From: Rhizodiscina lignyota
Lineage: Eukaryota
NCBI GenBank assembly: GCA_010015805.1
Contig: ML978124.1
Coordinates: 2,232,001 to 2,296,000 of the forward strand
Direction: 5' to 3'
DNA: 64,000 bases
Shown here: positions 25,403 to 62,644 of the stretch, piece by piece
Layout: the number at the start of each line of letters is the position of its first letter
Numbering within the stretch: the first letter of the stretch is position 1
The notes under the pieces: model-generated
Seen by the model: the letters and a program-made list of their open reading frames with translations, nothing else
Told to the model about the DNA's origin: nothing
Database searches by the model: none
Translations under genes and position numbers: made by a program

Positions 25403-28400
25403 TCATTCAATCCGCATCAATATCACCCTCAGCTTCTCTTGTAACACTGTTAATCTCTGCGGAACTGCCTCACGTAACACCCGCTCAATCTTCTCCAGCC
25501 ACATCTCGTGAAGCCCACACTCTTGTCCGGCATCCGCCAACTCTCTCAACTTCCTTCGAAACACGGAACCAGGAACGGGAACTCTCTTCGTCCGCAGCCT
25601 CCACACCATCAACACGTCGGCCGCACATATGACTTGCAGTCCTACTACAAACACTTCCGGCTTCCAGGTCCAGCCTAACGCCCCATCTTGATGCCCCTTC
25701 GCAGTGATAATAAGTGCATCAAGGCCTTCCACAACCCAAGTTGTAAAGGATGCCACAACATGCCTTGAAAGAGTCTCGGGAGACATTCGCTTGAGGACGC
25801 AAGACCACAGCGCAGCCTCCCTAACCTCATCAATATAAAGATTTTGTTTCTCTTCGACAAAGAGCGTGTTGTCCTCTTCGAATCCCTTCGCGATAACATC
25901 CCTCACTCTTCGCGGTCGGTCGAAGTCGGCAAACGATGGCTGACATAGCCTTTTGATGGCTTCAATACAAAGCTCTGTTGACCGAGGATAAGAGCGGATG
26001 AGGAAAGCAGCGAGATTCTGAGCGGCTTTCATAGGGATAAGAACTCCGCAGTTTCGAAGAAATCCTTGTCCAGTCAGGACGTCGGTAACAACAGCAGAGG
26101 CTAGATCCCTGATCTCATCGTCATCGTCATTGAGCGCATCGTATGTGACGAGGTATATCGGAAGGCATGCGAGGACAACGTTTCTGTTCAGGCAAGATTC
26201 TTGTGAGGACCAGAGGTGACGCAAACCCTTAAGTGAGCGGACAGACGCCATTCGAGCAGAGAAAGTCTGCAGGAATTGTCAGTTATAAATTCTTGCGCCT
26301 GTGGATTTACATACTCTTGGGTCGGCTAAGTTACTCTTCAGCACTTGTGCCAACGCCACCAATTCATCCGTCAAGCTATTCCAACTCCCCATGACAGACG
26401 CTTTGTCGCTGAGAGAAAGACCCCAGATGCATATCATAGCCTCTGACAGCGACGGAGAAGCTGATCCATCGAGTATAGACGTTGCCGAGATAGACACATT
26501 GGATAAGTCAACTTTGATGTGAAGAGAAAGCTCTGCCAGGGATTGGTACACGCCAGAGCGAACTTCTTCTTCCAATTGGCGTTGCGCAAGGTTGCAGATG
26601 GCCTTACCCAACAAGCATATTTGGGTGGTCCCATTGTTAGATTGTTGAAGGACATAATATTGCAGCCTCGTGATTGCGTGACAGCAAACTTGTGGGCTCG
26701 ATTTGGCCAACGAGTGAAGAACTTCGCTCACTTGTAGCTCAAGGTCCTCGTAAGGGCCTGCGTAGAGTAAACGCAAAAGGACATCCGTTGCAAGAGCTTT
26801 GCGGAACCAAACTGGTTGCTTCAGAAAACTTGGCGCGACTACCAGAGCAAGTTCATCGTTATATGTGTCAGCTGAGCCGTTCGTTTCGAGAAATTTCGTA
26901 CTATCTGCCGTCTCTGGTCAGTAAAACGATTTTGTGATATGCGTAGCACTCGGTCCATACTGCTCATTGTCATACCATGATTGATAACCGATGCGCTAGT
27001 CATGCTGAGCAGTTCAGTATATGCGGCTCGTGTGACTGGGCAAGCGTTGCGTTCGAAGAGGATGTCGAATCGTGCCAGTAGCCTTGTATGAGCTTTCTTT
27101 AGATCACCTGTACCGACATAAGCTTAGATAATGGAAAATACTACTGAGGACGCACTAAGTTCATCTATAAGCCCGTCACGACTACTCATCCTTGCGCGTA
27201 TGTAATGTTTCAACGTGAGAAGGAAGCCGTGTAGAGAGTTCTGGAGATGTGGGTGGTCTGGAACGGCGAGATCCCAGATACGTTCAAATTCGAGATCGCT
27301 TGTGAGCCGAACAAGAGTTCGTGCAGCCATATCACGGACATGCCAGTGAGAGCTTTCCGTTAGCTTCAACACTGGCTGCACGAACCGGGATCGCTGGTCC
27401 TTCAGAGGTGGAACTCTTTGGAGAAGATGCAAAGCAGGGAATACGGCTTCGAGAGCTCCAGGAGACTGCAAGGCTGAGGCTAATCCTTTGTCCCAAAGCT
27501 CAGGTTGATCATCGCCAGCGCCCAGCAAGCGCAATATGATATCCATCAAAGTCGGATAGTTTGAATACGAGAAGCGTGCAGTCTTGTTCTCAGACTCTTC
27601 CGATACATTCCCGGAATCATAGGTGCCGAGCATTCGATCAATCAATGCTCTGAATAGCATGAGTCCACAGTTCCGGATGGCCCACAAGGATGATCGTAAA
27701 CTCGAAGCGGCAAGGCCAAGACCGTCGAGAACATATCGCTCAGAAGATAGGCCTAGTTTGGAGTGAATGAAGATTGCTCTCAAGCAATTCATTGCATGAA
27801 CCTGCGGTAGAGGCACACTCCGATCCAAGCTATCGTCATTGGGTGTTGTTGCTATTTCAAACAGAGTCCGCATCGCTTCATGGAGCATAGGTCCATCTGG
27901 ATCAGCGCATATAATACCAGTCATGAGAGAGGGTAACCCGGCTGAGCGTCGGGTCAAGAATGCAGCTTTCGCTTCAATAGATTGAATTGCCCGTGCATAC
28001 CATGCGTGTATTAAATCTTGACTGCGAGGCTCCGTCGCAGTCATCGATCGAGTACAGCATGCAGCAAAAGTCTGTGCAACAGTTGAGAATGCACCCCGAT
28101 GGCGCAGGTCTGACAACTGAGTAAAACAAAGATCTCCTAATGCTGCAAATTCATCTTCGTCCAAAAAGCGTGTACTCTGAATGGCAGAGGAAGGCGTCTT
28201 GGTGATCATGATTCGTTGGAGAGCGCTCGACTCTTTCAAGGCTCGCCAACAGTAGCTCAGAACATCCTTTGTCGTCATGTCAGGGACATCATCGGAATCT
28301 TCCAGGACATAACCCTCTGGAGCGTCGTTTGATAAGACAGGACGTACAATCGTCCAGATGACAGGAAAAGAAGCATATATCCGTTGGTGTAGCGTTTTCC

Positions 28401-30649
28401 AGCGGACAACCGCGTCACTCGGGGCGGAGGAAAGACGATGGTAAAAATTAGCCTGCTCCAGCAAGTAACGCAGACTGATGAGAGTGCCATGCAATGGATA
28501 GGAACGAACTGCTTCAGGCAGCCCAGTGGTTGCAGCAGCTATTCCACGCTCGAGTTGGTCGAGGAGTTGTGTGAAAATTGTAATGTCAGTCCCAAGTGTA
28601 TTTTCTGAGTCTGTGACTAAATTACCGCCTGCGCAAGCTGCTGCAAACGAGACGGAATATGCGCGCGCAACGCCATCCGCCTGATCAGCACGTCCAGTTC
28701 GAAGCATAAGTCGCTCAGCTCTTGACAGGTACGCTCTTGTCATGGGGTTCACAAGTGCTTGAGTCGATGCGGATTCAGCAGGCCACATATGAAGAACCAC
28801 AGCAGCTGTCTGTCTGACATCATCGAATGGATCCATTAAGAGGTCTTGCAAAGATCGTAAAGTCCATGGAGTCAATATTTTGATAGCGAACGGCCATTTC
28901 AAGTCAACTTGTGCTTGCTTTGCTAAATTTTCCGTCGCAACCGCGGGATCGAGACCTGATCTCACCATCATCGCTAGAACTCTTATCGCCGTGAAGTGAT
29001 TTTGATAGGATGCGGAAGAGTGCATTTCACCAAGTAGGAACCTTGAAAGCCAGCGAACGAAGGCCTGGTGATAGTTGAGTTGGACAGTGGGACCTGATAG
29101 ATCAGAACGGACAGAAGAGCCAGACTTGTTGATGGCTTTCTGGAGGTATGCGCAAGCTCCACGCAATCGATCAAAGAGGCGCTGAACATGCCCGAGCAAT
29201 TCGCCTCGGAATTGTGCATCTGACTCGGAGATCAGAGATGGAAGAGCACTCCGCAACAGCCGAAGAGTCACGACCGTAAATGGAAGCGTTACGGCCGGAG
29301 AAGAAACGCATAGCGAAACTGCTGAAAGCCGGATAGTCGGAGATTGATCAACTATCAACGAACTGATAATTTTGACGGGAATGACGATAATTTCTTCCCG
29401 TAGAGCGATTTCAGAAATATCATCTACGAAAATCAGCGGTATGTATATCAGACATATTCATATCTAGGGAAAATTCACCTGTGTCCTTGACTATGCCTAG
29501 TTCTTTACCTGTCTGAAGAGCTGAGAAGAAAAGCTCGGTCTCAGCATCCCCCAGTCCATAGCCGCCGTGAGGTGTATCCATCGCATTGTCCGTGAGCAAC
29601 TGCGGCGCAATGCGTGCAAATGTTCTCATAGACTTCAAGAAGTTGAAGAAGTCACGAGTGCTTTCTCTGAACAACTTTGCAAACACAGTGTTTCGAAAAT
29701 TCTCCAAGCTATCTGGCTTTCGAATGACTGTGGCGACTATTGGATCAGCCCAGACTGGCGGATCGTTTAGGCCTCGTGACGGGCTGTATCCTGTACCATC
29801 CTTGGAATACTGCTTAAGGGCTTGAGAAACGAGTTGTCCTAAGGCAAGAGCAACGTCATTGTGGCTGATCCAAGTAAAAAGTTTGACAAGGAATTGGGAC
29901 AGAACTTCATCCGGTTTGGAAGAGCCTTGTCTCATGGGCTGGCGATCAAGAACCAGGGTCTCAAAGAATTGTAGTAGATGAGGGATTGAGATAATGCTCT
30001 TTGAAAGAAATTCAGTGAGACCCTGCAGAGCTGGTTTGATTTTGATATGCTCTCGGTCGACAAATATGATCCTAAGGAAAGCTCGGAGGGCCTCATCCCG
30101 CAATTCCACACTTTCGGTGCAGTGATTGAGTCGGTCTCTAAGATAGCTCGAGAGAGCTAATAATACCTGCCTCATGGATTTTGTCATAGAGACATCGGAG
30201 CGTTCAATGAAAGTGTCGAGCAATCTCTTCCACGCTTTCGTGTGTGATAGCGCTGCGTTAGTGGTGGCATCATGACTTTGTCTGGCAATGTCGAATATCG
30301 CGCAAGCAAAATTGCAAGCTGCTGCCCGATGCCTTGGTGGTAATCCAGGCTCGATTGATGTTGCCAAAAGGCTGTCAATCAGTTTTTCTAATGATCTGCT
30401 CCGCCGTCAGAATTTTCCTCTCTAGAGCTGCTTTCGAGCACTGACACATCATGGCGTCAGAGAGGCCATGGTCCTTACTTTACTGTCCAAGTCCCTGGTG
30501 ACCTCTGGCTTGGAGGTACAATTTGATGGACCGCTTTGAGCCATTCTCTCAGATTGTCTTCTGGAATGGGTGGCTCTGCTAAGAGCGTTTCTATGTCCAT
30601 GGCGATTGGTAATGTTGGAGAGCCCGTACTGCTTGGGGTCCTCATTCAT
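25403..30649 (-). CDS. TRM732: THADA/Trm732 family (DUF2428) ARM/HEAT-repeat protein, tRNA 2'-O-methylation cofactor; multi-exon, start uncertain
   Basis: Hallmark motifs CWRALKESS, LRHRGAFSTVA, TRRSAGLP, PQVHAMNCLRAIF, WAIRNCGLMLFRALIDRM, WHVRDMAAR and LFVEEKQNLYIDE across the ORFs at 29420-30367, 27124-29358, 26279-26776 and 25403-26251. Confidence 0.88.
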
Positions 30650-41199: not shown

Positions 41200-43329
41200 T
41201 TAATTGCGGACACGCTGAAGTAGAGCCGAGACCTTAGACTTCGACTCAGTATTAGTATCACGCAATTCTGTGCGAGGCAATGGTACCTCGCTTGATCCAG
41301 GTTCAGCACTGGGCTGATCACCGCCAATTACGACGCCCTTTACTTTTTGGTTCATCTACGACGCATTAGCTGTTAATCTTTCATATGTAGTCGAAGAGGA
41401 TTACCCACCTGATCGAGTCGATAATTCTTCATGAGAAGGCTGAGTGGTATCAAGGGAGCCGCCACACACACCGCTATGATTAGCAGGATGTGCATCGTCT
41501 CTTGATATGCTCGATTGATCGCAGCTCGCTCTGGAGAACCCATTGGCCATCCGGTTTGCGCGAGCGTTACATTTCCGTATATCGCTGTCGCCTGATCCTT
41601 GATATCTGGAGGAAGATATTTCGCTAGCTTCTTGGGGAGGTTGTTGGACCACACGGCGCCACTAATGCCATTACCAACAGCACCACCAACCTCCAAAATC
41701 GTGAGGAAGACGGCCGTTGCCGCTCCGACTGATTGATGGCTAGCCGATGCCTGGACACCTAATTGAGCAGGGACATTGAGAGTCCCTCCACCAATACCGA
41801 CGGCGATTTGACAGCCAACGAGAGTTCCAATCGACACACCCTCCTGGCGGTACCGTATCATCAGGCCGAGGCCCACTAGATATATGCAGGATCCGAAAGT
41901 GATGAAATACTTGTAATGGCCCGTGTATTTTATGAGCACGGATACCACGATGGACGCTACCGTCGATGTGAAGGAGAATGTCTGTGTGATATGGCCAGCT
42001 GCGGTAGTTCCGATGTTGTCCACGACGAGCAAGTAGCTAAAGAAATAGGGGTATACTGAAAGATAAAATGCCACTGATGCATCGTCAGTGGAGGCATTCT
42101 AAGACCGGCCAATGCAGAAGACTTACTGAAATAGAAGAATGCAATCGCCACTCCAACCACGACCGTCCGTTCTTTGAACAGCTCCCTAGGGAAGAATGGC
42201 CGCGGCGCCAACCTCCTGCTTCGTTCCCAAAAAGGAAATACGGCCATGCAGACACAACCGATGACAATCATTGCAATCATGCTGGGGTTGCTCCATCCTC
42301 CCTTAGCCGTGGCAGCCAGAGTCAATGGAAGCAAAATCAGCGAGATACCAGCCGACAAAAGTAAGAGGCCGAAGAAATCCAGATCAAACCAGAGCTGCCT
42401 GACAGCCTGGAAGAAGCTCTTGCCATTGAAGAAGGACGGAGGAAGAATTCCCATCTTCCCCGCCTTGCGCTGATTAAGGAACAAGGATAGAGCCAGCGGC
42501 ATGAAGGCTACAGGGAGCACTATTGCCCAAATTCCGTATCCCCATCTCCAGCTCGCCTCCAGGCGTATATCCGTCGCGATGATCGGACCGACCCACACCG
42601 TGAACAAGAATGGAAGATCTGGAATCGTGGAGAATAGCGCACGCCATAGGAGGTCGCTTGTATCGGCAATGAAGACCTGCTGCAGGATCTGAAGGCCTTG
42701 GGAGCCAGCAGAGTAGAATATTTGTGCAGAGGCGAAGGTCTTGACGTTGTTGGACCCAGCCTGCTGGATGTAACCGATGATGTATAGGCCTATCGCGATG
42801 CTGAATGATTCGAAGCGACCGAAAACGTCGGCAATTTTGGACATTGGTGGTTTGATGACGGCTTTATGGCGATTCAGTCAGTCATCAAGAAGCGCACAAC
42901 GCAGTTATGGATCCAACCTACCATTCACGACGCCCTGAACGACACTGACCGTTGACACAAGAGAGTGAGCAGCAAAAGCACTCGTTGCGAATGCCGTAAG
43001 ATTGCTCGTCGTCTGTTGCTCCAAGGAAGTCGATACAGCCATCAGATACAGTCTGTGTTACCTTAGCAGCGGGGTTCTCGCAGATACTGAAGCTACTCGA
43101 ACACCTACCCAAGATACGCAAATCCCAACGACCACTTCGTCCAAGCAGTACTGATGGCTTCGATTCTCTTCACTCCCGCTTGTGCTGATTCCCCGCTATC
43201 CAGCGAGGATTGGTCGTCCTCCCGAGCAACATAACTGCTGTTCTTTTCTACACCATTTCTTGGAAGTACAGCGGAGTCTTTGTTAGACGACGACGACTCC
43301 GCCGTAGCATAGTCTGGCGTATCAGCCAT
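41200..43329 (-). CDS. Siderophore-iron transporter (MFS, ARN/SIT/MirB family), multi-exon
   Basis: QAGVKRIEAISTAW, AFAAHSLVSTV, KPPMSKIADVFGR, LQQVFIADTSDLLWR, WRWGYGIWAIVLP, ERAAINRAYQ. The last exon ends at TAA 41200-41202. Confidence 0.88.
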
Positions 43330-44306: not shown

Positions 44307-46823
44307 TCATTTCTGAGCAGCGTCTTCTATTGGCCCCCCGGCCTCATCTCCTTTCGCAAACTCCTTCTCATCCTCTGCAATCTCATCCCACTCGCCATGC
44401 TCCCATACCATTTCAACATGCTTTACCGGGTGCAAAAGCACGCTTGGAAGACACATTCTCCCCTCGCCCGTCATCTCGAATTCTTCTCCACCATCATTGT
44501 TCACCTTGTAGCCCAACCACCTCGTCCATAGGTTCGCCGCAAACCCAGCGTTGTAGTACCAGGTTGTACCCTTAAAGTTGTGCTGCTGCTCTTCGCTAAA
44601 CACAGATTTCCTGCTTCCTCCGCTTGCGCCATTACGACCGTTGTTGAAGATCGCAGCGAGATATGATGTTGGCCAGCGCCGATCGATATATACCGGGTGA
44701 GGAGCATAGACGGCCTTCAGACCGTGGTGCAGACATGTCGTCGCAGGCCACATCTCACTGAACATGGTATGTCGCTTCAGCGCTACCTCGCGATGCATGA
44801 CCTCGAGCAGCCGACGAGAGTAGCGACCAGTGGTACCGATTGAAGAACGACGAGAAGGCGCACGACCTGAGGAGGTGTTGTAGCCAGTGTAGTCTTCCGC
44901 GAGGAGCCATTCTGTGCCTTCAGGATCGAAGAGCGGATTGAAGACTATCAGATCAGCTTCTTCGCCGACACCCCAACTGTACTTGTCATCTGCCAGATCA
45001 CTGGGTGGCTTAGGATCTTTCTTCGCTTCGAATTTATCCGTAGCATCAAGATCATCATCATCCGAACCCCAGATCGGCTTCTCTGGCTTCTGCTCCTCCT
45101 TCGGCCGCACATAGTCTGGTAGATTCGGATTCGAGCCAGCGAGCTTCGACCAGGCATTCGCAGCACTGTTTTTCCAAGAGTTGCTCGTGCCGTGCTCTGT
45201 CTGCACCCGAACCATGTGCTTGAAGTCATCCCAGGAGCCATGCTCAGATGGGACATAGAAGCGTGCATTGCGCTCCCATAATCCCTTCCGCGGCTGCTCT
45301 TTCGCCCACTTGCTGACGCGGTCTACAAGCTCGTAGTAATGGCCAATATATCGTACATCCATCTCCCAATGCCAGAAGAAATCATATTCCGGGTGCTGTT
45401 GTGCAAACCATTGCACAGGCATGAATGTGGAGCGGTAGACTCCATGAACAGGGAGTTCACGGTACATTGTATCCGCAATGCCGCCATAGACGAGGCCCAT
45501 CTGCCTCTCAGACCAAAGCGTGCCCATACCTGCAAATTCTGCTGGCAGAGACGCGTTCAAGACATTCTTGTAGGTCGCTTCGTCTGCCCAAATTTGAAGA
45601 TTGTCGTCTTTGACGTGGATCAGGAAGTGGATGGTATACTCGCCTCCAGAATTGATGGACAGCTCGGAGACCAGCGCGCGCAAGTAGAAAATGTCCTCCA
45701 CATCGTACTCGTAATCATGCCAGGTCCGGATGAGGACAGCTGTGCGAGGGAGCCTGCTTTTTGTCTTCTCTAAGGCAGCCGCTTCGGCTTTTCGAGCAGA
45801 GAGATGCGAAGGCGGAGTCCTGAGTTCATTCGAGTTTGCGGACGAGCTGAAATTGCCGACTTGCTTCGATGCCGTTCGAAACCGGTGCGCATTCTTCGCC
45901 AGACACCTTTCTTGCGCCCTCGCCCATTTCACGTTCCTGAAATCGACTGCTGGGGTCTGCGCCCAAACTTGCTCAACTCCGTCTCGATTGCCTTCCATAC
46001 CAGCACCACTTCCTCCTCTCTTCTGGCTATACCCCAAACCATAGGGGCCAAGCCGACCAAATCTGTCAAAGCATCTACTACTTTGGAGCCCCAAGACATC
46101 ATATGCGCCAATGATAGGATCCGGCATACCCTTGACAACTCCGGGATATGAGAGCAACGCCGGTATTCTGATACTCTCTTTCTCATCCAAGAAGCACTCC
46201 TTAGCCGCTTCATTCTTCTTGTACGGATTGAACGCCGTCGCTTTCATAAGTTCTGAGGACCGCCGATCCAGCGGCGTCGCCTCATTCTTCTCCTCTCCCT
46301 CGCTTCCCGCACTTGTCAAGTTTGCAATCTCCTCCAACTCCTTGTCCCTGTTCGGGTATTCAGGCTTATTCTTTCCTCTGCTAACAAGCGCTCTTATCCC
46401 ACCGTAGTACCGTTCAAGGAACGGGAACTCCTCCCATGGCGGCGCCTGCTCCGGCACATTTTGAAAACCCTGTTCAACTTGCTTCGCGGAGCTTGCGCTA
46501 AGCTGCCATAGTGTAAGTGCGAGCACTATAAGTGTGGATCCAAGGCATATGGAAAAGTAGCGGGAGTAGTTGTGCCGGAAGCGGGAGGTTGGACGCGACC
46601 ATGCTATTGCGCTGGGTTTCCGCCTGGTTCGGCCGTAATTGATGGATATTGAGGAGCGGCGAGAAGAGGTAGAGGAAATGTCTGGATCGTCATCATTGTC
46701 TGAGTCGAACGAAGCGCGCTTCTCGACGTCGGTGTCGCTTTCTGTGCTGTCGGAATGGTCGCTTGCTGGAAGGGAGGAGTAGCGCTTGGTGGTCTTGAAT
46801 GGATTGAGATGTAAGGAGAGCAT
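44307..46823 (-). CDS. DUF3405-family type II membrane protein (glycosyltransferase-like)
   Basis: One N-terminal TM helix followed by CFDRFGRLGPYG, RTAVLIRTW, LRALVSELS..SGGEY, YDFFWHWEMDVRYIGH, WGVGEEADLI, SEMWPATTCLHHGLKAVYAPHP and MCLPSVLLHPVK. Confidence 0.8.
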   Translation of the reverse strand: MLSLHLNPFKTTKRYSSLPASDHSDSTESDTDVEKRASFDSDNDDDPDISSTSSRRSSISINYGRTRRKPSAIAWSRPTSRFRHNYSRYFSICLGSTLIVLALTLWQLSASSAKQVEQGFQNVPEQAPPWEEFPFLERYYGGIRALVSRGKNKPEYPNRDKELEEIANLTSAGSEGEEKNEATPLDRRSSELMKATAFNPYKKNEAAKECFLDEKESIRIPALLSYPGVVKGMPDPIIGAYDVLGLQSSRCFDRFGRLGPYGLGYSQKRGGSGAGMEGNRDGVEQVWAQTPAVDFRNVKWARAQERCLAKNAHRFRTASKQVGNFSSSANSNELRTPPSHLSARKAEAAALEKTKSRLPRTAVLIRTWHDYEYDVEDIFYLRALVSELSINSGGEYTIHFLIHVKDDNLQIWADEATYKNVLNASLPAEFAGMGTLWSERQMGLVYGGIADTMYRELPVHGVYRSTFMPVQWFAQQHPEYDFFWHWEMDVRYIGHYYELVDRVSKWAKEQPRKGLWERNARFYVPSEHGSWDDFKHMVRVQTEHGTSNSWKNSAANAWSKLAGSNPNLPDYVRPKEEQKPEKPIWGSDDDDLDATDKFEAKKDPKPPSDLADDKYSWGVGEEADLIVFNPLFDPEGTEWLLAEDYTGYNTSSGRAPSRRSSIGTTGRYSRRLLEVMHREVALKRHTMFSEMWPATTCLHHGLKAVYAPHPVYIDRRWPTSYLAAIFNNGRNGASGGSRKSVFSEEQQHNFKGTTWYYNAGFAANLWTRWLGYKVNNDGGEEFEMTGEGRMCLPSVLLHPVKHVEMVWEHGEWDEIAEDEKEFAKGDEAGGPIEDAAQK

Positions 46824-47755
46824 TTTTGTAGCTTTCAATGATGATACCGGTGGTTACCGGAATGTGTGGCCCGATTTCGTCATGCGGAATTTATGTTCGT
46901 GAAAGTGATTGTTCGGCTGTCAACAAATCGTCAACGAAAGCGTTGAGGCCGGGTGCAAAAGTCGCGACGTGTAGCTTGATAAAAGCCGATAAAACGATAG
47001 GCTCTTACAGATTCAAATCTTGTGAGAACAACTTGAATTAAATTTTCCAATGTTAATGTGCTTTCTCCAGCGATGCTCGATGTCGCGTCGTCACTTATTT
47101 TCGTGGAACCGCTGCCGGAGCAACCACTGCGCTAGTCTGTAAGTGGTAAACATAGATTTTCCAGGAAAATTTTGGATTTTAGACATTACAATCCGGCCGA
47201 CTTGCGAAAGGCAGTAGTTATAGTATTAACATAGCACCGATTAAAAACAGCTGGTACTTGACACAAGTGGATGTCTGCCAGTCTTTGCGAGGGTTTGGAG
47301 ATGGCTTCTCTCCTGCTCCAATGCGACGATACACCAATGTCCAAGCAGAATGCCACTCCGCGAAATTATACGAAAAAAAGCTTCGTACTTACTATAGATA
47401 GAAAAGTTTCAATATTGGCGATGTAGAGAAAGGCCAGTCTGACTTGATACTGCTCTTGCAAAATTCCGGTTGTTCATTTTGCGGTCCTCATATCGAAGTA
47501 CGTCATCTAGTATTTGACGTCTGTTGGAATTAATATGTAGCAATACGCACAATTGACAGATTACAGTCAACCAGTGAGCTCATTATCGACGGTCGTCTGA
47601 ACATCAGACAGAATACAAAGGGTTAGCCATATCCATGCGATAGACCTTCCTGACACGAGCAACACGTTGAAGCAAATGGCCCCAAATATGTGATCTCAAA
47701 ATTTGACAAATTTGGATCTCATACAGCCATAGTAAAACCCGTCTATCAGCTACGT

Positions 47756-51937: not shown

Positions 51938-53174
51938 TTAGAAGATTGCCAACGCATTTGGCGGACTTCCGACAGATCCAGGAACATTCAATGGCGACGA
52001 AGTCAAGAGGAAGCTGTATCTTCCCAGCTTTGCGCAGGTCTCCGAAAGGGCTTTGAGATCCCACAGTTCGCCGATGTACATGCCAAAGAGACCGAGGAAG
52101 TATTGGTGGAGCACTGAGTACCGTTAGTCCCAGACTAAAACTTTGTCTGGCAGAACATACCGAGATCTTCTGTTCCACGTTCCTCTCCATTAACTAGCGG
52201 GGGAATGGTCTCGAACGCAATAGCATCGCCAGCGACTGCTGCGAAGTGATTGTTCCAGAACCATTTTGCGGTATCCTCTGTACCTTCCACGCCGCAAGTC
52301 CTGTGTGTTCCGAGCGCCTTGGCCTGCTCGCCACCGTCCATCGCACCCAAGGCCTCCGTGAAACCAGACCGGATGATGAAGATGTCACCAAACTTGAACT
52401 CAACACCTTGTGCCTTAGCTATCTGCTCAATCTCCTTGACGGTTATGCGCTTGGATTCGAATGGCGAGTATTTGATACCGTTATCGTCAGCCCACTTCTT
52501 GTAATCAATCAGGACACCGCGGCCGACCATTCCTCCACGAGTATGCCAGTCTATGCAAAGTTAATGGATGGACTTGTGGTATGTGGAGGACATATCGTAC
52601 GATTTAAGGTTGGCAATTTCATCTCAGTATCCCAAGAGCCAAACGGCTGTTCAAGATCCTTGGCTGTAAGTTTGTGTCCGTTGTATGTAGTCCCAGTTGG
52701 TTGGTGATTGAAGTGAACCAGACTATCCCACTGACTGCTACATTGGGTGTTGAATTCGACCTTTTGGCAATTAGCGATACTCATATGCTTTGGAGAAACC
52801 TTTGGCCAACCTCATCGTCAAAGCCATGGCATCGAAGGCCCTCCGGCGCATCCATGAAGCTCATGGTTTTGTGCACTAGACCTTTTCGGAAGAAACCCGG
52901 AGTCTGAATTGCTCCAATTGGCCAGCTGCGCGGATAGGTCAGCCTTTTCTAAGAGTTCCCAAGAACCGCAACTGAAGACGTACTTTAGCGAAACCGAAAC
53001 ACCATCCTTGCATTCCTTATAGGCTTCTTGGAGAACCTCTGGAGTCAAAAGATTCAACGTTCCCAGAGCATCCTTTTTGCCGCCTTTGTCAAAGACCCCC
53101 CAAGCACAGCCTTGGGGCATCCCATCCACCTTGGGCAGACTATCAAAGTCCGGAATGTTCAAGGTGTTTGCCAT
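51938..53174 (-). CDS. Cyclase-family (kynurenine formamidase-like) putative metal-dependent hydrolase, multi-exon
   Basis: AWGVF...DALGTLNLLTPE, EFNTQCSSQWDSLVHF, GGMVGRGVLIDY, GDIFIIRSGF, FAAVAGDAIAFE, LHQYFLGLFGMYIGELWDL and LNVPGSVGSPPNALAIF. Confidence 0.85.
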
Positions 53175-54517
53175 TGTGAAACCTGTCAATCACGATTGAA
53201 GGTTGATTGAAGAAGGAATCTCTCAGCGGTGTGCTAGAATATATATTACGGCAACGGGCGCTAGAGCCTAGCTAACACTCTCTGTTAAACTTGATGTGAA
53301 GTTGCCTTGTGTTTCGAATTGGGGCGGGATCAAGAGCTTTGGAATGGTCGAGAGAGGAAACAACGCCGAGCAAAAAGTTTAAAGAGCAATGCCTCAAGTG
53401 AGATGAGCTGAGAACGAGGATAAGAAGAGTGAAAAGTAATACAGACCACTCACTACCCCTCATGTATAGCCAGCCCCTCATCCCCGGGTGGAACATTGTA
53501 CCTAGGTCATAACGGCACTTCACGCCTTTCCATGACCCCACCTGATCGCTGCCGGGACAGTTCGCAGCTAATGTCAGTCGCGTCTTGGGGACGCGGAAAC
53601 CGATTCGCGAAACGCATGCGGAGCAATCTAGCGAGCGGCTAACTCGAAAGAGATAATCCTCGAGCTCCCTGGGCTTGAAGTTGCAGCTCTACCTAGCCAT
53701 CCCTCAAGTAATCGCCGAAAGCGAACAAACGACTATGGCACGGAGTTAGACAGCGAAACGGATGATGTGTGACTGTCACGTAGGTCTGCATCGAGAGCTG
53801 TTTATTAGGGAAATTTCTTTTACGCAGCTCTTCTATTTGCGGTCGGATTGGAATATATTGGCTTGGAGATACCTTCGCCAACTAATAAAATGTCCGGAAT
53901 TTGGAAGGCACATAGTTGCCACGTGACGTCACCTTTCACGCGCTCGGCCCGAACGAAAATCTGATCTCACGCGGAAGATTCCACATCAACATTACCTTAT
54001 ATCTTTACATCTAGACATCTACAATGTCCAGACATTCCACTTGAATCTCGACGCGTTCGACGCACTTCATTCCTAATATGACCATTTTCAATTTGAGGTG
54101 TACGGTGAGACCAAAACGGCGGGAAAGTATCCCGGAGAATTTAGGGAGCAACCGGCGCTCCAGGGGCATGCCACTCGAGTAGCCTATATGGAACGAGAGG
54201 AAGAAGTGCGATGTCTGGAATCCCGGTCGAGGGCCACGAACATCAGCATCATCCCGGCACTGTTATATTCTGCAGCAAAGACATTGCGATCCTCGCAGGA
54301 GATAAGAGGTCTCGGAGATTTGGTCTAGATCGAATCATCGATTATCTGGAAGCCTGAATCACAACACGCTGTCAAATTCACCGGGTAGTTGAACGGCTCG
54401 AGAAAAGGGCACTCTGAGAGTTTATTAACTTATCATACAGATCCACGAGTTAGATCATCCGTCATTACGTCCTCCAATCATCCATCGTGTACGATTCTAA
54501 AGCGCCAAGCGTGTCTG

Positions 54518-56437
54518 CTATTTCGGGTACAAGTTGGGATACGCCGATTTGATGATATCAGCGCCCTTCTCCGCAACCATGTACACGTCGTTCTGGATAC
54601 GGCAGTCTGGAATCACTGGGAACACAGATGCATCAATGACGCGGAGACCCTTCACGCCGTGGACGTTGAGGCCAGCATCAACCACACCCTGCTGGATGTT
54701 CTTCGACAGACGGGTAGTTCCGCAAGGATCTTGACCATATTAGCGATAACTTGAACGGGAATGGTGATGCACTTACGGAAGCCAGTCTGGGAGCGCTCCA
54801 AGATCATCTTGATCATTGCCTCATCGGAGTTACGAGGCATCGGCCATGGATAGTCCTCTCCAACAATATCCTTCATTCCATCGCCATTCATAACGATATC
54901 ATCGACCCATCTGACACCCTCACGGAGGGCAATTAGGTCAAGATCGTTGGAGAAAAAGTTGATGTTGGCATCAGGATCGTCAAGGGGATCAGCAGATTTG
55001 AGCTTCACCCAGCCGTTCCTCGATAGCGGGCGCATCAAGTCAACAATGACTGTGAGCCAGTCACCTGCTGGCGGTGTTGGGAAGTGCCACTGGAAGGCGT
55101 CGGAGAACATTGGCACGAAGTCGACCTCGAAATGAGGCTGGCCGGAAGGACCGAATGGATCAACGCCTCCGTTCTTTTCCTTGTATGCGACATACTCCTT
55201 CGATTTGTTGAAGTATTCATCACAGCGTGGGAATGCAACAAGCTCGAGAAGCCCACTGCTCAGAGGACCACCCTTGTTCTTCCTGTAAAGGGATACGGCA
55301 GCATCCTTGTTAGGGCCTGCGCGGAGCAAGTGACTATCGAGACCATAGCCGTCCTTGAGCTTGAAGACATGCGACAAGATGGGATGATCGAGAAGATTTT
55401 GGCCGACATGGGGAGACTTTACGAGCGGTTTGATGCCATGCCTCGAGAGTTCGTCTTCAGGGCCGATACCAGACAACATCAAGAGCTTGGGAGATTCGAA
55501 AACACCCAGAGAAACGATCACTTCGTGCTTGGCCTTGAATGTGTAGTCGCGGCCATCAGGTCCGAGCACAGTAATTCCAGCAGCCTTGTTGCCGTCAAAG
55601 ACCAGCTTCTTGGCGTAAGTGTGCGCCATCACGGTGATGTTGTCCTTGCCCTCAACAAACACTGCCGATGTTGAACGTTGGCCATTGTAGATAGTGCTAA
55701 CGCATTTGAAGAGGCCAGTCTGGGTACCGGAGTAAACGTCTGTAGTTATCTTCTGACCCTTGCTGACCCAGGCCTCCTCCAAGGCATCACGGAAAGGCTT
55801 GAGCTCTGGGATGAGGTCTGCGTGCGCAACATGCAGAGGCCCACTACGGCCAACGTGCTCGAGGTATGGGGAGAACAGCTTGTCATCGTCGTGATAGGTC
55901 GCCGGCTTGTCAAAGTATTCCTTGCAATTATCCCAGCTCCATGTCTCTCCGCCGTACTCGACCCAGTCGTCGATCGTCGGCTTGCTTCCGCGGACCCAGG
56001 TGTAATAGTTGCCGCAGCTACTTCCACCCAAGCACTTTCCACGTGTATTTGGCTTTTCGACACGTGTATACTCTGGACGGTCAATCAAAGTTGTCTTGTA
56101 ACCCCAGTCATATTGGCTTCCCCGTAGCTCAAATGCACGAGCAGGCGTGTTGATTTCCGGAATCTCTGTAGGGTTTCTAGCAGGCCGATGATCAGCATTC
56201 TATCATTGAACACATTGCCAAATCACCTAAACTTACGGTGGACCGGCCTCAATGACCAAGATCTTCACATTTGGGTTTTCTGCCAAACGTCCAGCTACAG
56301 TGCAACCTGCGGTACCGCCTACAGGGAGTCTAACGTCAGCAACGCGATGCTAAGGAACTCGAGGATGCCGTACCTCCGACCACAATGAAGTCAAACTCCC
56401 CCGGCGCATCCTTTGGTGCAGTTGAAGCATGAACCAT
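54518..56437 (-). CDS. GMC oxidoreductase, formate oxidase-like (His-Arg catalytic pair), 4 exons
   Basis: FDFIVVGGGTAG FAD motif, EKPNTRGKCLGGSS, PKLLMLSGIGP, VGQNLLDHP, AFQWHFPTP, QTGFHPCGT (His codon split by intron 54730-54776) and IPDCRIQNDVYMVAEK with Arg at the second catalytic position. Confidence 0.9.
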
Positions 56438-57458
56438 CTCGTTCTCTTACTACGAGCAATTGTTCCTAATGGTGAGACAGGCGTTTTCAGGTCGACGCTG
56501 GAGCTAAAGCTAAGCCGTTGCAATTGGAGAAGGCTGAGCTGGGCTTGATGCCATTGAGAACGATGAGCGAGCATACTTTATAGCTTACCTTCATGGTAAG
56601 TCTGCTACAGATGGCGTCATGCGCGATTGACTTCGTCGTGAAACGAATCGTCCGCTGCGTCCGGAGGCACGTTGGCCTCCTCGCGCGATACACATGGCGC
56701 ACGATCTCATCCACCACTCTCAATATGCAGCATGCATCAATCTCATGATTATCCCTTCGGGGCGAATGGATGCGCTATGGGACTGGCGTGAAGAAGTCCA
56801 TGATTAAGCATGCCGGCGCAAGGGTCTGGGTTTGAGGTTTTCTGGAGAAGGCAATGGTGGTAAACCCCAAAAGGTAAAGAAGGCGAGATAGACGAACTGT
56901 CAAACATGACAGCCGTTCTCTCATATGTCTCAAGTTTTGAATTTCTCTTCTCGCGCGAACTTTTGGTCCCTCGTTTTCTACTTTCACCCCCTGCACTGGG
57001 GTCATCAGGGGTACTCGTGCGAGTCGGCTAAACTCCGGAGAACTTCCAGTTTGGTTCCGTTGCTTCATCAATGGTTACTCATCTAGCTTGGACTACATTG
57101 TGGATTGCTGAATCAGAAATGCTTCTGTCTTATTGGGAGAAGACATGATGCGAGCCGCGAAGACATACGCCCGTCCTTTCTGCCCTAACCTCCAGTATTC
57201 CGGAGCATTCGGAGCAGATCTGGATCCTTGTGAATCGTCAAATTATGGGCATTGGTAACCCAGTTACAAGAGTCATGGATGTTAACACGGGAGTATATCT
57301 GCTTCTAAACACCAGCACAAACTTAACGATCATATCATCTTCTGCTTATTAGCAATCAGGCAGCTGCGAGACAACGTCTGATATCTCACGATTCCAATTT
57401 GGCAATTCAGGATCAATAATCCCCTTTTCCGCGGACCATCCTTTGAATCAACCTCACC

Positions 57459-59202
57459 ATGGGCTCTCTTACCCAAATTGAACCTCCGACGTACACTCTT
57501 GCCGAGGGTTGGCATTGGTCCCTTCTATTAATGCAACTGCTGTCTGACTAACATGACTAAGGATGCCCGATTGCCGACCCAACGACAGCTCAACGAGTCG
57601 GAAGTCAGCCGGTCAAGGGGCTTCTGCTCCTTCAGGATACCCAGTTGATCGAGACCTTGGCGCATTTCAGTCGCGAACGTATCCCTGAACGCGTTGTGCA
57701 CGCCAGTGCAGCAGGTGCATGGGGAGAGTTTGAAGTCACTCACGACATCTCCCACTTGACATCTGCAAAATTCCTCAATGGCATTGGCAAGAAATCAAAT
57801 GTTCTCCTACGAATCTCAACTGTCGGCCCCGAGCGCGGCTCGGCTGACTGTGTGCGAGATGTTAGGTACGTACCCTGTTGGCCTCAGTAGAAACGTGCTG
57901 GATCAGCTAATCTTTTCAAAGAGGGTGGGGAATGAAGGTGTTCACGGAAGAGGGCAATCAAGATTGGGTCTTCAACAGCATTCCAGTATTCTTTGTGCGA
58001 GACCCGATCAAATTTCCGTCTGTGAACCGGTCGCATAAGCGACACCCAGCGACGAACGTGCACGACTCAACGATGTTTTGGGACTTTCACGTGAACAATC
58101 CGGAGAGCATCCATGCCACCATGGCGCTTTTCAGTGATAGGGGAACTCCAGCAGATCTACGTCACCTGAACTCGTACAGTGGCCACTCGTACAAGTTCAC
58201 GAAGGAAGTAAGTTGGTTCAACCGCCACTCGTATACCTGCATATGTGGCTTGGACTTACTGCTCTCAGGATGGCTCCTTCTCATACGTCAGGATACATTT
58301 CAAGACCGATCTTGGTGTCAAGACCCTCACGAACGACGAAGCGGTCAAGCTCGCTGGCGAAGAACCTTCGCATCACACCGCCGACCTCTACGACGCCATT
58401 GAGCGTGGCGAGTACCCTTCGTGGACTATGTTCATCCAGGTGATGAGTCCTGCTGAGGCGGAAAAATATCGATGGAACATCTTCGACATGACGAAGGTGT
58501 GGCCACATGCAGACTACCCGCTGCAGCCCGTAGGGAAGCTTACGCTCAATCGAAATCCCACCAATTACTTCACGGATATCGAGCAAGCGGCATTCTCGCC
58601 ATCTACGTTGGTTCCTGGCATCGCCCCTTCTGCTGATCCGATGCTGCAGGCACGCATGTTTGCATATCCAGATGCTGCAAGATATCGCTTAGGAGCCAAC
58701 TACCAGCAGCTGCCTTGCAATCACCCTGTCAGCGAAGTATACTCGCCCTACCAGCGTGATGGCGCGTTCAGATACGCTAGCAACTACGGTGGCGACCCGA
58801 ACTACGTGCGCGCATCAGTCAAACTGGTCAAATACAAGGGCAAGCTCGGTGCCAATGGACAGGCTGACGAGGCCCATGACGATTGGATTGGAAGGGTGTC
58901 TGCATACTCATCAGAAGTCACAGACGAGGACTATCTCCAAGCTGCGGCCCTGTGGGAGGTCATGGCCAAGGACAATTCGCAGGACAACTTCGTGTACAAT
59001 GTCAGTCAGCATCTACAAAGCGCAGCTCCGCACGTGCAACAGGGCGCTTTTGGTAAGTCCTATCTATTCGGGCGCACATGTGTCCCCATGCACATTGGCG
59101 TTGATTACACGTTGGTAGCTGACGATGCAAGCAGAAATGTTCTCTCGGGTGAGGCCGGACCTAGGGAAGCGCATTGAGCAAGCAACGACGAAGGCCGTCT
59201 AG
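57459..59202 (+). CDS. Monofunctional small-subunit heme catalase, multi-exon
   Basis: LAHFSRERIPERVVHA (distal His), DWVFNSIPVFFVRDP (Asn), EQAAFSP and LQARMFAYPDAARYRLGANY (proximal Tyr). Stop TAG at 59200-59202. Confidence 0.95.
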
Positions 59203-60157
59203 CCATCTGGTTCGTGGATTTGCGGACACTTCTTGTGCATCTGAATTCCGAGATTTCGGAGAAATCTGGGGTAGAGTTTTTCACTTCGTAGAAATGCATT
59301 ATGACGACGTTTTGGCTCTTAGTGAAAGCTTGTGTATCTGACCGCCTATGATGCCTGCACTTCGATAGGACAACAGAGCATCCCCTGCAAACGTGAGCCA
59401 CAGAGATTCCACGGAAGCAGGCGTCGCCATCTAAGCGATAGCCGACGGACATAGAGCGAGTCTGGCCCAAGAGCGTCGATTAATTCCGCCGCTCCGCGTT
59501 TTGTCATCACAGTCCTGTCGCTTTAGCTAAGATTTGAGTAAGCCTGGCGCCGAGTCAGAACAGCTGTTTCCACTGTGCCTGCGTGCTCAGGCGGAAAAGG
59601 CATTATCGCTATCTTAAACAGGAACAGAAGCAGCGAGCCCTGGCGCGCAGTCCCAAACTCCTCCTTAGCGTGCAGATCGACTTGGGCTGCCGTTTGCCGC
59701 ATACGCGGCGAAAACAGGGTAGAAGGCGGCCCCGGGCCAATGGCTTCGTGGAAGCCCGGGGTTCCTTCGGTGGGCGCGGCGCTTGCGGCGTGCAGAAGGA
59801 CTTTTCTCGCAGGCGGCCAAAGTGCGGCTTAATTCCTCAAAGCTGTACGGCCGCAGGGTCGCGCTGCATCATCTGCGTGCAGAGGAAGATATAAGCATGA
59901 GCAGACCCTCGTCGATGACGTTGGAACAAATCGTTCCGCGCCTATAACGCTCGTATATGCGAGATTAGTTATGGGCAGATGTCTCAGAGTGGACTTGAGG
60001 ACGGCGAGAATGGTAAGGGGAATTTTTTGTTGCCGATAATCCCTATACACCCTCGACGGGGAGATCGGAGCATTCCATACATATACATCGCCAGCCCCCG
60101 GCACAACTCCGTTGCTGATTCAATTGTTACTACTCAGGTTCGACCATAGGTTCGACC

Positions 60158-62644
60158 ATGAGTACTGCTAGAAACTTCTCCGGTATACGCCGAACAAGAC
60201 CGTCATACAGCTGCGAGAACTGCAGGCTGCGCCGAGTGAAATGTGACCAGGTTAGCGACACCCGAGGACGGATGGCATTGTCGGTTGTTCAACGCGCTCA
60301 TAACGACAACAGGTTCACCCCAAGTGCGGAAACTGTACTCGAAACGGGACCGTATGCTCCTACCCAAGTGCGCCTTTAAAGAGAAAGTCACCTTCCGAGG
60401 ATCCGGTTTGTCAGCAAGGGAAGACGTCGCGTCGAAAGGTTGATGAGCCCACCCATTTCCGACATGGACATTTATCTCTCCAGAACGGAGGCCGCTCACG
60501 CTACACTGAGAACACCTTCTGGGCTTGTGTGGATGTTGAAGTGAGCCACTCCCCTGTCTACACCGCAAACGCGGAGACTAATCTGATTTCAGGGCCTTGA
60601 GCTAGATTCATTGCTATCAGACCTGCCTTTATTTCCTTTGGAGTCAGTCTGCTGTGCTGCCGACGATTCATCCCGCAATAACCCTCACAGCATGTCGTGC
60701 CGACATTTCGTCGGCACGACCGAGCCAAACTTCTCCTTCTGGGTCTCCAGACGGCCAAACATCGTCGAAGGAGACAGCCGAAGCCTAGCCGGAACACTCG
60801 TACAACTACCCCCGCGAGCGACATGTGACCAGTTGTATACCATCTTCCTCGCTGGTGTTCATCCGCTCATTCCGTTGATCTATCTGCCCGCTTTTGACAA
60901 GCAGTACCAGCGATTCTGGTCCTGGTATGAGCATTGGAACAGAAAAGACATCCCCGAGGGAGTCCTGCTGGAGAATCCCAGCTTCTTACCACTATTGCTA
61001 GCGGTGCTGTTTGCCGGTTCTATCGCGGCATCGAACATGGAGCCCGGGAGGACACCTTCCCCATCGCAGACACATAACCGCGAGTTACAGGCCAAGTTGT
61101 ACAACCTGGCATCTGATGCGCTGACATTGGTCGGCTTTCCTCACAACCCTGCCATATATTCTTTAATCGCCTTTCTCTTCATCCAGTCAATGCTTATCCT
61201 CGAGGAGGAGTCTCTTAGTTCCGTGTCGTTTGTTGCCGTCGCATTCCGTATCTGCCAGGCCATGGGCATCCACAAAGATGGAACAAACTTCGGTTTGCAT
61301 CCAATCCAGGTGGAGGAACGACGACGGGTGTGGTGCCACCTCATGCACCTCGACGTTATGACTTCGATGATATCCGGTCTTCCGCTAATCGCGTCCTCGG
61401 AGGCATTCTGCACCACCCAGATGATTGGCGAGTTAAGAGACGAATGGATCGGCAAAGAACGCGAGGCTTCTGCTGAGAATACTCATCTCTATCCCGGATA
61501 CATTCTGGCCGCCGGCAGATACGACGCCACATCTGTCATTCGTAATATCCTTCTCCGGCAATTCGCACCAACACCGATGAAATCCACAGACGTAAATCAG
61601 TTGAAAGGTACCATTGAGCGGCTGAGTCAGCGCTCGGAGGAACGGGCAAAGAGATTGGCTGCGTTGAACTATCCAGAGGCGTGGGCGCAAGACCCCACAA
61701 GTCATGGAGTTCATTCCCCTCCTCTCCCAGCTACACTTTCGGATGTTGAAGCATTTGATGGCTGGTCGCGAGATCTTCTCGTGATGATGGTCGAGAAAGC
61801 TTACTGTGTCCTATACCAACCATTAATGCAGGAGTTGAATCTTTGGCAGGAGCTCCGGACTGAAGCAATCCCACATTTCCAAGCGAACATCCGGATATTC
61901 CTTCGTCTCTGCAGCACAAAATCTTACAAACCGTTCCAATGGCTCTACCCAGGGGCGTACCAACCGCTTCAGCCCGCAGCAGTACTGCTCGTAGACCTGG
62001 CTAAGGAACCCAACTCACCGCAAGCTGCAGAGTCACGCATCTTACTCGAGCAAGTGTTCTCACTTCTGGGGCCTGAAGGACGAGTTGGCGCGGGAGTAAT
62101 GAAGCAGAGACACTTTTCTGATGGAGCGAAGAATGCTTGGGAACGACTTGAAAAGCTGAGGAGGAAAGTGTGGAAGAAGTTGGGACTGGACTCGAGCGTG
62201 CTTTGGTCCAGAACGATTGCAAGAGGGCAAGAGCAGGACATACCTGGGAGCAGTAGTGGCATGTTTTCCTCTCAAGGCTCAGACACGAGATTGGCGGAAG
62301 ATCCACCGTCGGTATATCCGAGCAGTGCGCAGATGGCCGAGGGGTCTACCGTGGAGCCTACCTCTACTGCGTACGTGTTGCAGCTGCCTCTGAATTTGAA
62401 AGCGCAGACTGCTAACAGCGACATTAGAACTCCATCACAGGCTGCGATGAACGACCTCTTTGTACCTCATCAACAAACATTCGCAGAGGGCTTGGAATCG
62501 TACCCGATCTCGGCTCCTGCCTCGGCACCAGGCTGGTTGGGAATGCAGCGAGATCCGGTGGAGATGGCTTCCGACTTCCTGGGTTCAGAGTATTCAGTAC
62601 CAGACTGGATGGGTTGGAATCATGGTGAAGATCCGTGGAGATGA
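60158..62644 (+). CDS. Zn(II)2Cys6 transcription factor with fungal-specific TF domain, 3 exons
   Basis: SCENCRLRRVKCDQ|VHPKCGNCTRNGTVCSY binuclear cluster, VHPLIPLIYLPAF, and AFRICQAMGIHKD...EERRRVWCHLMHLD. Confidence 0.92.

Follow-up and report, generated by a model that had tools for sequence, protein, structure and literature searches.

A probable regulator–catalase–formate oxidase module in Rhizodiscina lignyota and other fungi, with an oxidase–catalase counterpart in Actinomycetota

The genome of the dothideomycete Rhizodiscina lignyota (assembly GCA_010015805.1) carries, in a stretch of 64,000 nucleotides of contig ML978124.1 (forward-strand positions 2,232,001 to 2,296,000, referred to as the window, in whose coordinates its genes are placed here), four consecutive genes encoding a cyclase-family hydrolase, an oxidase of the GMC family, a catalase and a Zn2Cys6 transcription factor (Table 1). 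An earlier note, made from the sequence alone, had read these genes as one pathway, in which the hydrolase would release formate, the oxidase would oxidize it and the catalase would remove the resulting peroxide, under the control of the transcription factor. Spliced models with canonical GT..AG introns were built for all four genes, with exon translations 100% identical to annotated R. lignyota proteins, and these models, the Pfam domains and the accession numbering bear out the presence and order of the genes, including the head-to-head arrangement of catalase and oxidase described in the note. The cyclase-family gene is located 1.3 kb downstream of the oxidase gene on the same strand, with no intervening gene. 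The annotated proteins of the four genes bear the consecutive accessions KAF2101033 to KAF2101036, and the depositors' annotation therefore has no gene between the four either. As argued below, the regulator, catalase and oxidase genes probably form a three-gene module for formate oxidation independent of nicotinamide adenine dinucleotide (NAD), to which the cyclase-family gene most likely does not belong.

Table 1. Features of the window discussed in the text (aa, amino acids; bp, base pairs; exons in the order of transcription)
Feature	Position	Strand	Exons	Remarks
Cyclase-family (PF04199) gene	51938-53174	-	53174-52984, 52925-52811, 52760-52601, 52550-52161, 52113-51938	5 exons, 343 aa; Gln-Gln-Asp-His esterase subfamily; identical to annotated P0001
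Formate oxidase orthologue (GMC)	54518-56437	-	56437-56374, 56318-56237, 56176-54777, 54729-54518	4 exons, 585 aa; GMC_oxred_N + GMC_oxred_C; spliced model
Oxidase/catalase intergenic region	56438-57458	.		1,021 bp separating the two start codons; taken to be a bidirectional promoter common to both genes
Catalase, small-subunit clade 3, monofunctional haem	57459-59202	+	57459-57507, 57562-57865, 57922-58207, 58269-59052, 59135-59202	5 exons, 496 aa; Pfam Catalase; spliced model
Zn2Cys6 transcription factor	60158-62644	+	60158-60250, 60313-60540, 60593-62644	3 exons, 790 aa; Zn_clus + Fungal_trans; spliced model
THADA/Trm732-family protein gene	27124-29457			no obvious formate link
MFS transporter gene, TRI12-like similarity	41373-42877			no obvious formate link
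DUF3405 protein gene	44307-46853			no obvious formate link

The oxidase contains both domains of its family (PF00732, expectation value (E) 1e-28; PF05199, E 7e-8 and 1e-16 on two exons) and, in the spliced model, a GxGxxG motif for the binding of flavin adenine dinucleotide (FAD) that reads FDFIVVGGGTAGC. Its exon 3 matches the formate oxidase of Aspergillus oryzae (AoFOx; structures 3Q9T, 5ZU2 and 5ZU3) at E 4e-182 over residues 41-512, with other solved GMC enzymes at E 1e-37 or weaker, and its last exon aligns with chain residues 511-577 of the same enzyme (E 6e-24), the PDCRIQN stretch included. The histidine of the FHP motif and the arginine of PDCRIQN align at positions 510 and 553 of the chain, equivalent to 511 and 554 once an offset of +1 is applied; in the numbering said to stem from Doubayashi in 2011, His511 and Arg554 are reportedly the catalytic residues of the A. 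oryzae enzyme. Window residues R94, S101, H516 and R559 correspond to R87, S94, H511 and R554 of AoFOx, and R87 and S94 are described, in an excerpt of PMC11236828, as required for 8-formyl-FAD to form in formate oxidase. In an alignment of 86 oxidase sequences, these four columns are kept in 81 to 83 (Arg87 column, R in 81; Ser94 column, S in 81), save the histidine column, which reads H in 57 sequences and R in 24, the latter readings being consistent with read-through of an intron that splits the codon, as it does in the window gene. All seven bacterial sequences checked also have these four residues, which are linked to formate oxidation and 8-formyl-FAD. By every sequence criterion tested, the GMC oxidase is thus a formate-oxidase orthologue, as the note, which had seen its His-Arg pair, had proposed. 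The annotated oxidase (P0121, 593 aa) differs from the spliced model at intron 1 only (56237-56437): it reads FDFIVHRVADVRLPVGGTAG, which breaks the FAD-binding motif, and the GT..AG intron 56373-56319 restores it. R. lignyota has a second formate-oxidase paralogue (P0122), 76% identical and carried on a separate contig of 860,553 bp, which is the sister of the window oxidase in the oxidase tree (support 0.995).

The catalase domain PF00199 is found on three exons of the divergent gene (E 1e-37 to 2e-82), covering profile positions 5-381 of 383, and among solved structures, those of fungal and yeast catalases come closest (6RJN, 2XQ1 and 1A4E, E 6e-77 to 4e-68). The annotated protein (P0241) has the same length as our model, and its first 25 and last 12 residues are identical. 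The translation reads RVVHASAAGA, FNSIPVFFVRD and RMFAYPDAARYR, in which we take the distal His, the distal Asn and the proximal Tyr haem ligand to lie, going by their positions in mammalian catalase. The protein ends in KAV and has no C-terminal peroxisomal targeting signal type 1 (PTS1), and the canonical PTS1 [SAC][KRH][LM] is absent from both proteins of all 13 linked oxidase-catalase pairs inspected, which points to a cytosolic location of oxidase and catalase.

Conservation of the arrangement was assessed first in metagenomes, from which 67 loci were retrieved with an alignment of 24 oxidase orthologues and searched by local tblastn with the four spliced proteins; merging loci with oxidase genes of 93% or higher identity gave 51 lineages. 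The oxidase has a neighbouring catalase in 16 of the 67 loci, corresponding to 15 of the 51 dereplicated lineages: 12 of these are among the 23 with 3 kb or more of upstream sequence, and three more show it despite shorter flanks. Two of these 23 (L052 and L031/L033) group with Actinomycetota, bringing the fungal figure to 11 out of 21. A head-to-head arrangement is seen in 12 lineages, the genes being some 470 to 3,340 bp apart; in two, they are in tandem with the catalase upstream, and in one, bacterial, the catalase is downstream. All-against-all clustering of the flanking open reading frames (ORFs) returned only oxidase, catalase and regulator as recurring in at least three lineages, the other groups of that size being overlapping frames of the oxidase and catalase genes. 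No transporter, formamidase or oxalate decarboxylase recurs among the 109 flanking ORFs of 14 catalase-linked loci, and none was found in the rest of the window, the MFS transporter gene of Table 1 having no obvious formate link. Locus L022 (12,626 bases, GC content 0.34) contains only two ORFs of at least 150 aa, an intronless oxidase gene and an intronless catalase gene, head-to-head.

In named genomes, gene order was read from the numbering of locus tags or accessions, a proxy that the window's own run of accessions validates. Oxidase and catalase are numbered adjacently in at least 12 named fungal species (with one or two genes between them in two species). Consecutive tags, on contigs of equal length, are found in Cirrosporium novae-zelandiae (M1834_008538/37), Cosmosporella sp. 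(Fc.00g097930/40), Rasamsonia byssochlamydoides (VTN77DRAFT_8436/37) and Chaetomium olivicolor (VTI74DRAFT_11242/43), and consecutive accessions in Colletotrichum plurivorum, Lasiosphaeris hirsuta, Lasiosphaeria hispida, Bombardia bombarda and Aulographum hederae; the numbering is also consecutive in Cryptococcus neoformans, C. deneoformans and C. deuterogattii, and the two numbers are 2 apart in Tricladium varicosporioides and 3 apart in Halenospora varia. The pairing thus spans Dothideomycetes, Sordariomycetes, Leotiomycetes, Eurotiomycetes and Tremellomycetes, with varying genes around it. Because it recurs in so many lineages, the adjacency of oxidase, catalase and regulator is far beyond chance. 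Clustered with the Colletotrichum catalase at 90% identity are also many proteins of 378 aa named 'Tyrosinase family protein asqI', whose accessions adjoin those of the catalase in some strains; this may be a clustering or annotation artefact.

The third member of the recurrent set is the transcription factor, which matches PF04082 (E 1e-13) and PF00172 (E 3e-4), the latter scored on exon 1 alone because an intron splits the motif. A CX2CX6CX6CX2CX6C cluster is readable across exons 1 and 2, and the spliced model contains all six cysteines. The annotated protein (P0428, 657 aa, flagged as partial) begins inside the protein (60158-60592), and the two upstream exons of Table 1 provide the start codon and the full Zn2Cys6 cluster. 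A search with the large exon gave 1,621 hits among 1.84 billion representatives, in which a Cryptococcus protein (P0438) ranks 11th (E 8.6e-109), and the window regulator is 42% identical to that of C. deneoformans (P0582) over 617 collinear residues (414 bits, BLASTP), a high value across phyla for the fast-evolving Zn2Cys6 family. Judged by this alignment, the window regulator is an orthologue of the Cryptococcus factor encoded beside CAT2. A regulator homologue also accompanies catalase and oxidase in metagenome locus L044 (34% identity over 489 aa, 286 bits). One clade of 19 tips (support 0.978) unites the oxidases of the window, of L044 and of Tremellomycetes, including Cryptococcus, and the trio therefore marks a subclade and not all formate oxidases. 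The part of the earlier note's proposal that concerns the Zn2Cys6 factor is supported by an orthologue beside the pair in Cryptococcus and in L044.

In C. neoformans, the three window orthologues are side by side (CNAG_05255 - CNAG_05256 - CNAG_05258), the oxidase being 67% identical to that of the window and the catalase, over exon 4, 67-68%. The tag order regulator, catalase, oxidase is the same in each Cryptococcus series considered (AYX14_01851/52/53, AYX15_01801/02/03, CNBI3020/30/40 and AAW45228/27/26). In the parts of the papers considered, CNAG_05256 is named CAT2 and CNAG_05258 a GMC oxidoreductase (PMC11237718, PMC13645139, PMC6282196, PMC12667325), and CNAG_05255 is given as the Zn2Cys6 factor FZC2, within a segment duplicated in JEC21 (PMC8022950). 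In C. deneoformans JEC21, all three genes (P0396, P0415 and P0582) are present in two identical copies, their accessions and tags (CNH03750 and CNL03750) coming in pairs, which agrees with the chromosome 8/12 segmental duplication reported in the same excerpt. Gene order and this duplication together suggest that the regulator of the Cryptococcus cluster is FZC2/CNAG_05255. The literature searched mentions the three genes separately and contains no treatment of them as a unit or in connection with formate: CAT2 and CNAG_05258 are listed in different papers only, as far as the main-text tables go; one search of the supplement of PMC6282196 returned CNAG_05258 and did not find CNAG_05256 or CNAG_05255; and FZC2, as a whole word, does not occur in the main texts of PMC4391232 and PMC7090016.

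A related arrangement occurs in bacteria. Scanning one genome per prokaryotic species returned six loci with homologues of 54-57% identity, all from Mycobacteriaceae or other Actinomycetota, and a family-wide search found the oxidase gene in three of 401 sampled genomes, the starting genome counted. The oxidase homologues of nine actinobacterial loci are 54-58% identical to the window oxidase. Eight of the nine have one to three copies of a catalase gene beside the oxidase, mostly co-directional (one copy in L069 is on the opposite strand), seven a PucR-type regulator, and six a gene of the D-2-hydroxyacid-dehydrogenase family, read as NAD-formate dehydrogenase. The dehydrogenase of L072 (L072:4782-5969) matches solved NAD-formate dehydrogenases at E 7e-180; the gene is a fragment in L052 and is in two segments in L070. 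Among all 73 loci (L001-L073), NAD-formate dehydrogenase is found in no fungal locus and only in actinobacterial ones (L052, L068-L070 and L072). Catalase is absent from L071 and from the metagenome lineage L031/L033 that groups with L071, the catalase figure being 8 of 10 with this lineage included. In L071, the only actinobacterial genome locus devoid of catalase, a cupin-domain gene (PF00190; L071:5633-6415) lies downstream of the oxidase homologue, as do a metallo-beta-lactamase-fold gene and a lipocalin-like gene. In Mycolicibacter icosiumassiliensis (L068:6123-9269), the oxidase homologue is split by an integrase-core (rve) gene at 6686-7717, an insert that resembles an insertion sequence disrupting the oxidase gene.

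The closest solved entries to the bacterial catalase are 9T0L, 1GWE and 4B7F, with fungal and yeast entries far lower, and the window catalase shows the reverse order; we take 1GWE and 4B7F to be bacterial catalases. This difference in nearest relatives indicates that the catalase partner was recruited separately: oxidases of one clade came to be linked with a catalase on two occasions, each time from another catalase lineage, and in bacteria also with a second formate-oxidizing enzyme. No argument from context speaks more strongly for formate as the substrate and for selection of the catalase pairing. The actinobacterial version itself likely reflects gene transfer between kingdoms.

Such evidence bears on another reading, in which the module is real and the oxidase acts on something other than formate (another small acid, an aldehyde hydrate or an alcohol), the catalase being a generic protection against H2O2. 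The members linked to a catalase are known from sequence alone, GMC enzymes often switch substrate, and the characterised A. oryzae enzyme sits in a region of the tree whose sampled lineages lack a catalase: those grouping with the Rasamsonia/Penicillium branch of Eurotiales have none adjacent, and none grouped with the Aspergillus sequences. Nevertheless, the residues linked to formate and 8-formyl-FAD are conserved throughout, the bacterial sequences included, and a bona fide NAD-formate dehydrogenase is clustered with the homologue in most of the actinobacterial loci. We consider a substrate other than formate rather unlikely.

Could the genes be adjacent through nothing more than the chance history of their local order, their products being functionally unconnected? 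This is highly improbable in our view, as the pairing recurs across five fungal classes while other neighbours differ, and is met again in Actinomycetota with a different catalase lineage and gene order. What can be said for it is that about half of the informative lineages have no catalase and that no shared promoter motif was found. These and several other results also weigh against the three-gene module itself. Of the 23 lineages whose upstream sequence extends to 3 kb or more, 11 have no catalase, and the catalase-less loci include the closest metagenome relatives of the window oxidase (L001/L009 and L003) and the Aspergillus/Penicillium-like L056/57 and L058/59. In L041, only a catalase fragment is found upstream of the oxidase (L041:8380-8886; 169 aa, residues 17-167, 78% identical to those of the window catalase), and L043, whose oxidase is near-identical to that of L041, has no catalase, an apparent decay of the partner gene. 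The coupling of oxidase and catalase is therefore dispensable; the catalase-linked oxidases being dispersed over the entire oxidase tree, the pattern, with L041 and L043, fits an old linkage with repeated loss. A regulator homologue is found in only two of the 15 catalase-linked metagenome lineages, one of the matches being weak (L066, 23% identity, 75 bits), and in Scytalidium lignicola the homologues of regulator, catalase and oxidase are on separate contigs.

The intergenic regions yielded no conserved promoter motif either. In 13 divergent intergenic regions, the top 7-mers occur in 10 (shuffled maximum, 9) and the top 8-mer in 7 (shuffled maximum, 7); the upstream regions of the window (cyclase, bidirectional and regulator) have five 10-mers in common, against a shuffle mean of 6.3, and no 11-mers. 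The CCGGAGCATTCGG site at 57200 matches position 60066 over 10 bases, which is at chance level. As no motif convincingly exceeds the shuffled controls, promoter sharing is inferred: the single 1-kb intergenic region probably drives oxidase and catalase divergently, and it is the gene layout that suggests co-regulation of the cluster. Two further reservations concern the proteins, as an oxidase and a catalase devoid of PTS1 may still be imported into peroxisomes by a non-canonical route, and specificity for formate is suggested by similarity and by the bacterial context.

The fourth gene was given a central role in the earlier note, which viewed its product as a formamidase supplying the formate. 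An AlphaFold model of the cyclase-family protein (predicted local distance difference test score, pLDDT, 78.8; predicted template modelling score, pTM, 0.85) has 5IBZ as its best Foldseek match (E 1e-21, 28% identity), which is also its sole solved sequence relative (E 1e-25); isatin hydrolases come next, and the kynurenine formamidases 4COG, 4CO9 and 4COB match the fold at E 3e-6 to 4e-5 with 10-14% identity, the cyclase-like fold being present. According to excerpts of PMC5341072, 5IBZ is MGS0169, a metal-stimulated carboxylesterase of the cyclase-like family that prefers an ester to the amide isatin by a factor of about one thousand and favours very short acyl groups, para-nitrophenyl acetate being its best substrate. 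The same excerpts give HxGTHxDxPxH as the motif of kynurenine formamidases and a modified motif, Gln-x3-Gln-x-Asp-x3-His, for MGS0169, which is cited there as also present in the trans-dienelactone hydrolase of Pseudomonas reinekei. The window protein shares the modified motif: it reads QCSSQWDSLVH, i.e., QxSSQxDxLxH, and is devoid of the two formamidase histidines of the KynB-type motif, with Q108, Q112, D114 and H118 invariant in 41 homologues. By sequence alignment, Phe84, Arg87, His286 and Glu299 of MGS0169, the last three being substrate-site residues validated by mutagenesis (PMC5341072, in part), correspond to F75, R77/K78, H288 and E301, and the four motif residues, R77/K78, H288 and E301 are invariant or nearly so across homologues. 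The two proteins differ in that only 28% of their residues are identical. A function as kynurenine formamidase is thus not supported: the motif histidines, which define these enzymes, are missing, identity to them is low, and the nearest characterised relative is an esterase.

The distribution of the gene agrees with this. Although it adjoins the oxidase on the same strand, with nothing between the two, it is found at none of the 67 metagenome oxidase loci, in which 26 lineages have at least 3 kb downstream, and a Pfam scan gave no PF04199 match among the ORFs flanking the catalase-linked loci. In the two named species with a known position for each gene (Trichodelitschia bisporula and Fonsecaea nubica), cyclase and oxidase are on different contigs, and, unlike the window, Cryptococcus has no cyclase-family homologue among the best 120 hits for the gene. 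The synteny proposed for the set of four therefore stands for oxidase and catalase, with the regulator in one subclade, and fails for the cyclase-family gene. A protein of Fusarium mundagurra (P0109, 801 aa) joins a cyclase homologue to a flavin monooxygenase of the 3-(3-hydroxyphenyl)propionate hydroxylase type; it probably represents two merged neighbouring genes, and hints at an aromatic-catabolism context for the esterase subfamily.

For the full four-gene pathway to hold, the hydrolase would have to free formate from an N-formyl aryl amide, or, in a modified version, from a formate ester, ahead of oxidase, catalase and Zn2Cys6 control. The modelled fold does belong to a family that includes kynurenine formamidases, and the preference of MGS0169 for very short acyl groups makes formyl esters conceivable substrates; nothing supports such an activity on formate esters, however, an amide is hydrolysed about 1000 times more poorly than an ester by MGS0169 (PMC5341072, in part), the replaced motif is invariant among homologues, and the Fusarium fusion points towards aromatic or lactone catabolism. 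We regard the four-gene pathway as very unlikely. As the formamidase motif failed and the gene was found at none of the 67 oxidase loci, the deformylation step is dropped from the pathway, and the cyclase-family gene most likely encodes an unrelated metal-dependent esterase or lactone hydrolase that happens to lie beside the module.

How would the three-gene module work? In vivo, the substrate is presumably formate, which a cytosolic formate oxidase would convert, together with O2, into CO2 and H2O2. Catalases can oxidize formate peroxidatically, and the dedicated catalase, itself devoid of PTS1, would clear the peroxide either by dismutation or with a second formate as electron donor; by either catalase route, the net reaction would be 2 formate + O2 -> 2 CO2 + 2 H2O. 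The adjoining Zn2Cys6 factor would be the likely pathway-specific regulator, and probably a local activator. A bolder version, which we offer tentatively and hold to be possible but doubtful, sees in the trio an autonomous and mobile formate-detoxification cassette that moved between Ascomycota and Tremellomycetes, while the oxidase gene moved between fungi and Actinomycetota, where it gained a bacterial catalase and an NAD-formate dehydrogenase; the catalase would then be a second formate oxidizer acting via compound I, with two formates consumed per O2 and no free peroxide. If true, this would give a first physiological role to CAT2, FZC2 and CNAG_05258 of C. neoformans.

Several known systems resemble the module in part. 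AoFOx has in common with the window oxidase the GMC fold and domains, the His-Arg pair and the R87 and S94 equivalents, and, by direct reading, neither protein has a signal peptide or a PTS1; it differs in having been studied as an isolated enzyme and biocatalyst, as judged by the titles of papers listed and by PMC6563469. In general, matches listed for 'formate oxidase' in the literature are, by their titles, enzymology, biocatalysis or passing mentions, and in PMC8756645 formate oxidase is merely a reaction in a metabolic model. A biological context has been proposed in formaldehyde-resistant fungi (bioRxiv 10.1101/2025.11.10.687738, in the part considered, citing Kondo 2002).

The closest functional parallel is provided by methylotrophic yeasts, in which a GMC alcohol oxidase makes H2O2 from a one-carbon compound and is functionally paired with a clade 3 catalase. 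The likeness extends to the peroxisomal catalase 2XQ1, which is among the nearest solved relatives of the window catalase. The yeast enzymes are peroxisomal and, to our knowledge, their genes are not adjacent, whereas both window proteins lack PTS1, their genes are head-to-head and a regulator adjoins them. The alcR-alcA system of Aspergillus nidulans is a primary-metabolism cluster with an embedded Zn2Cys6 activator, and by analogy the small catabolic gene set of the window adjoins a factor that is probably pathway-specific; the window differs in its substrate, presumably formate, and in having a bacterial counterpart, with PucR-type and LysR-type regulators. The earlier note knew of no description of its arrangement as a pathway, and likewise none was found for the regulator-catalase-oxidase trio, nor for the gene arrangement at large, in the literature searched (most subscription journals and supplements lie outside it). 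What is new here is the conserved, regulator-bearing formate oxidase cluster and its bacterial counterpart, the logic of pairing such an oxidase with a catalase being familiar.

On the practical side, the analysis corrects two public gene models (those of the oxidase and the regulator) and the reading of the cyclase-family gene. As C. neoformans, a genetically tractable species, has all three genes side by side, specific and cheap tests can be made in it, and the cluster suggests what catalase 2, the uncharacterised FZC2 and a GMC oxidoreductase seen in several expression studies may do. Formate oxidase has so far been mostly an enzymological curiosity or a biocatalytic source of peroxide, with a biology limited to formaldehyde-resistant moulds. 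The actinobacterial version adds independent contextual evidence for formate as the substrate, and the conserved cluster indicates that many fungi run an O2-dependent, NAD-independent disposal of formate, and shows how the peroxide by-product would be handled.

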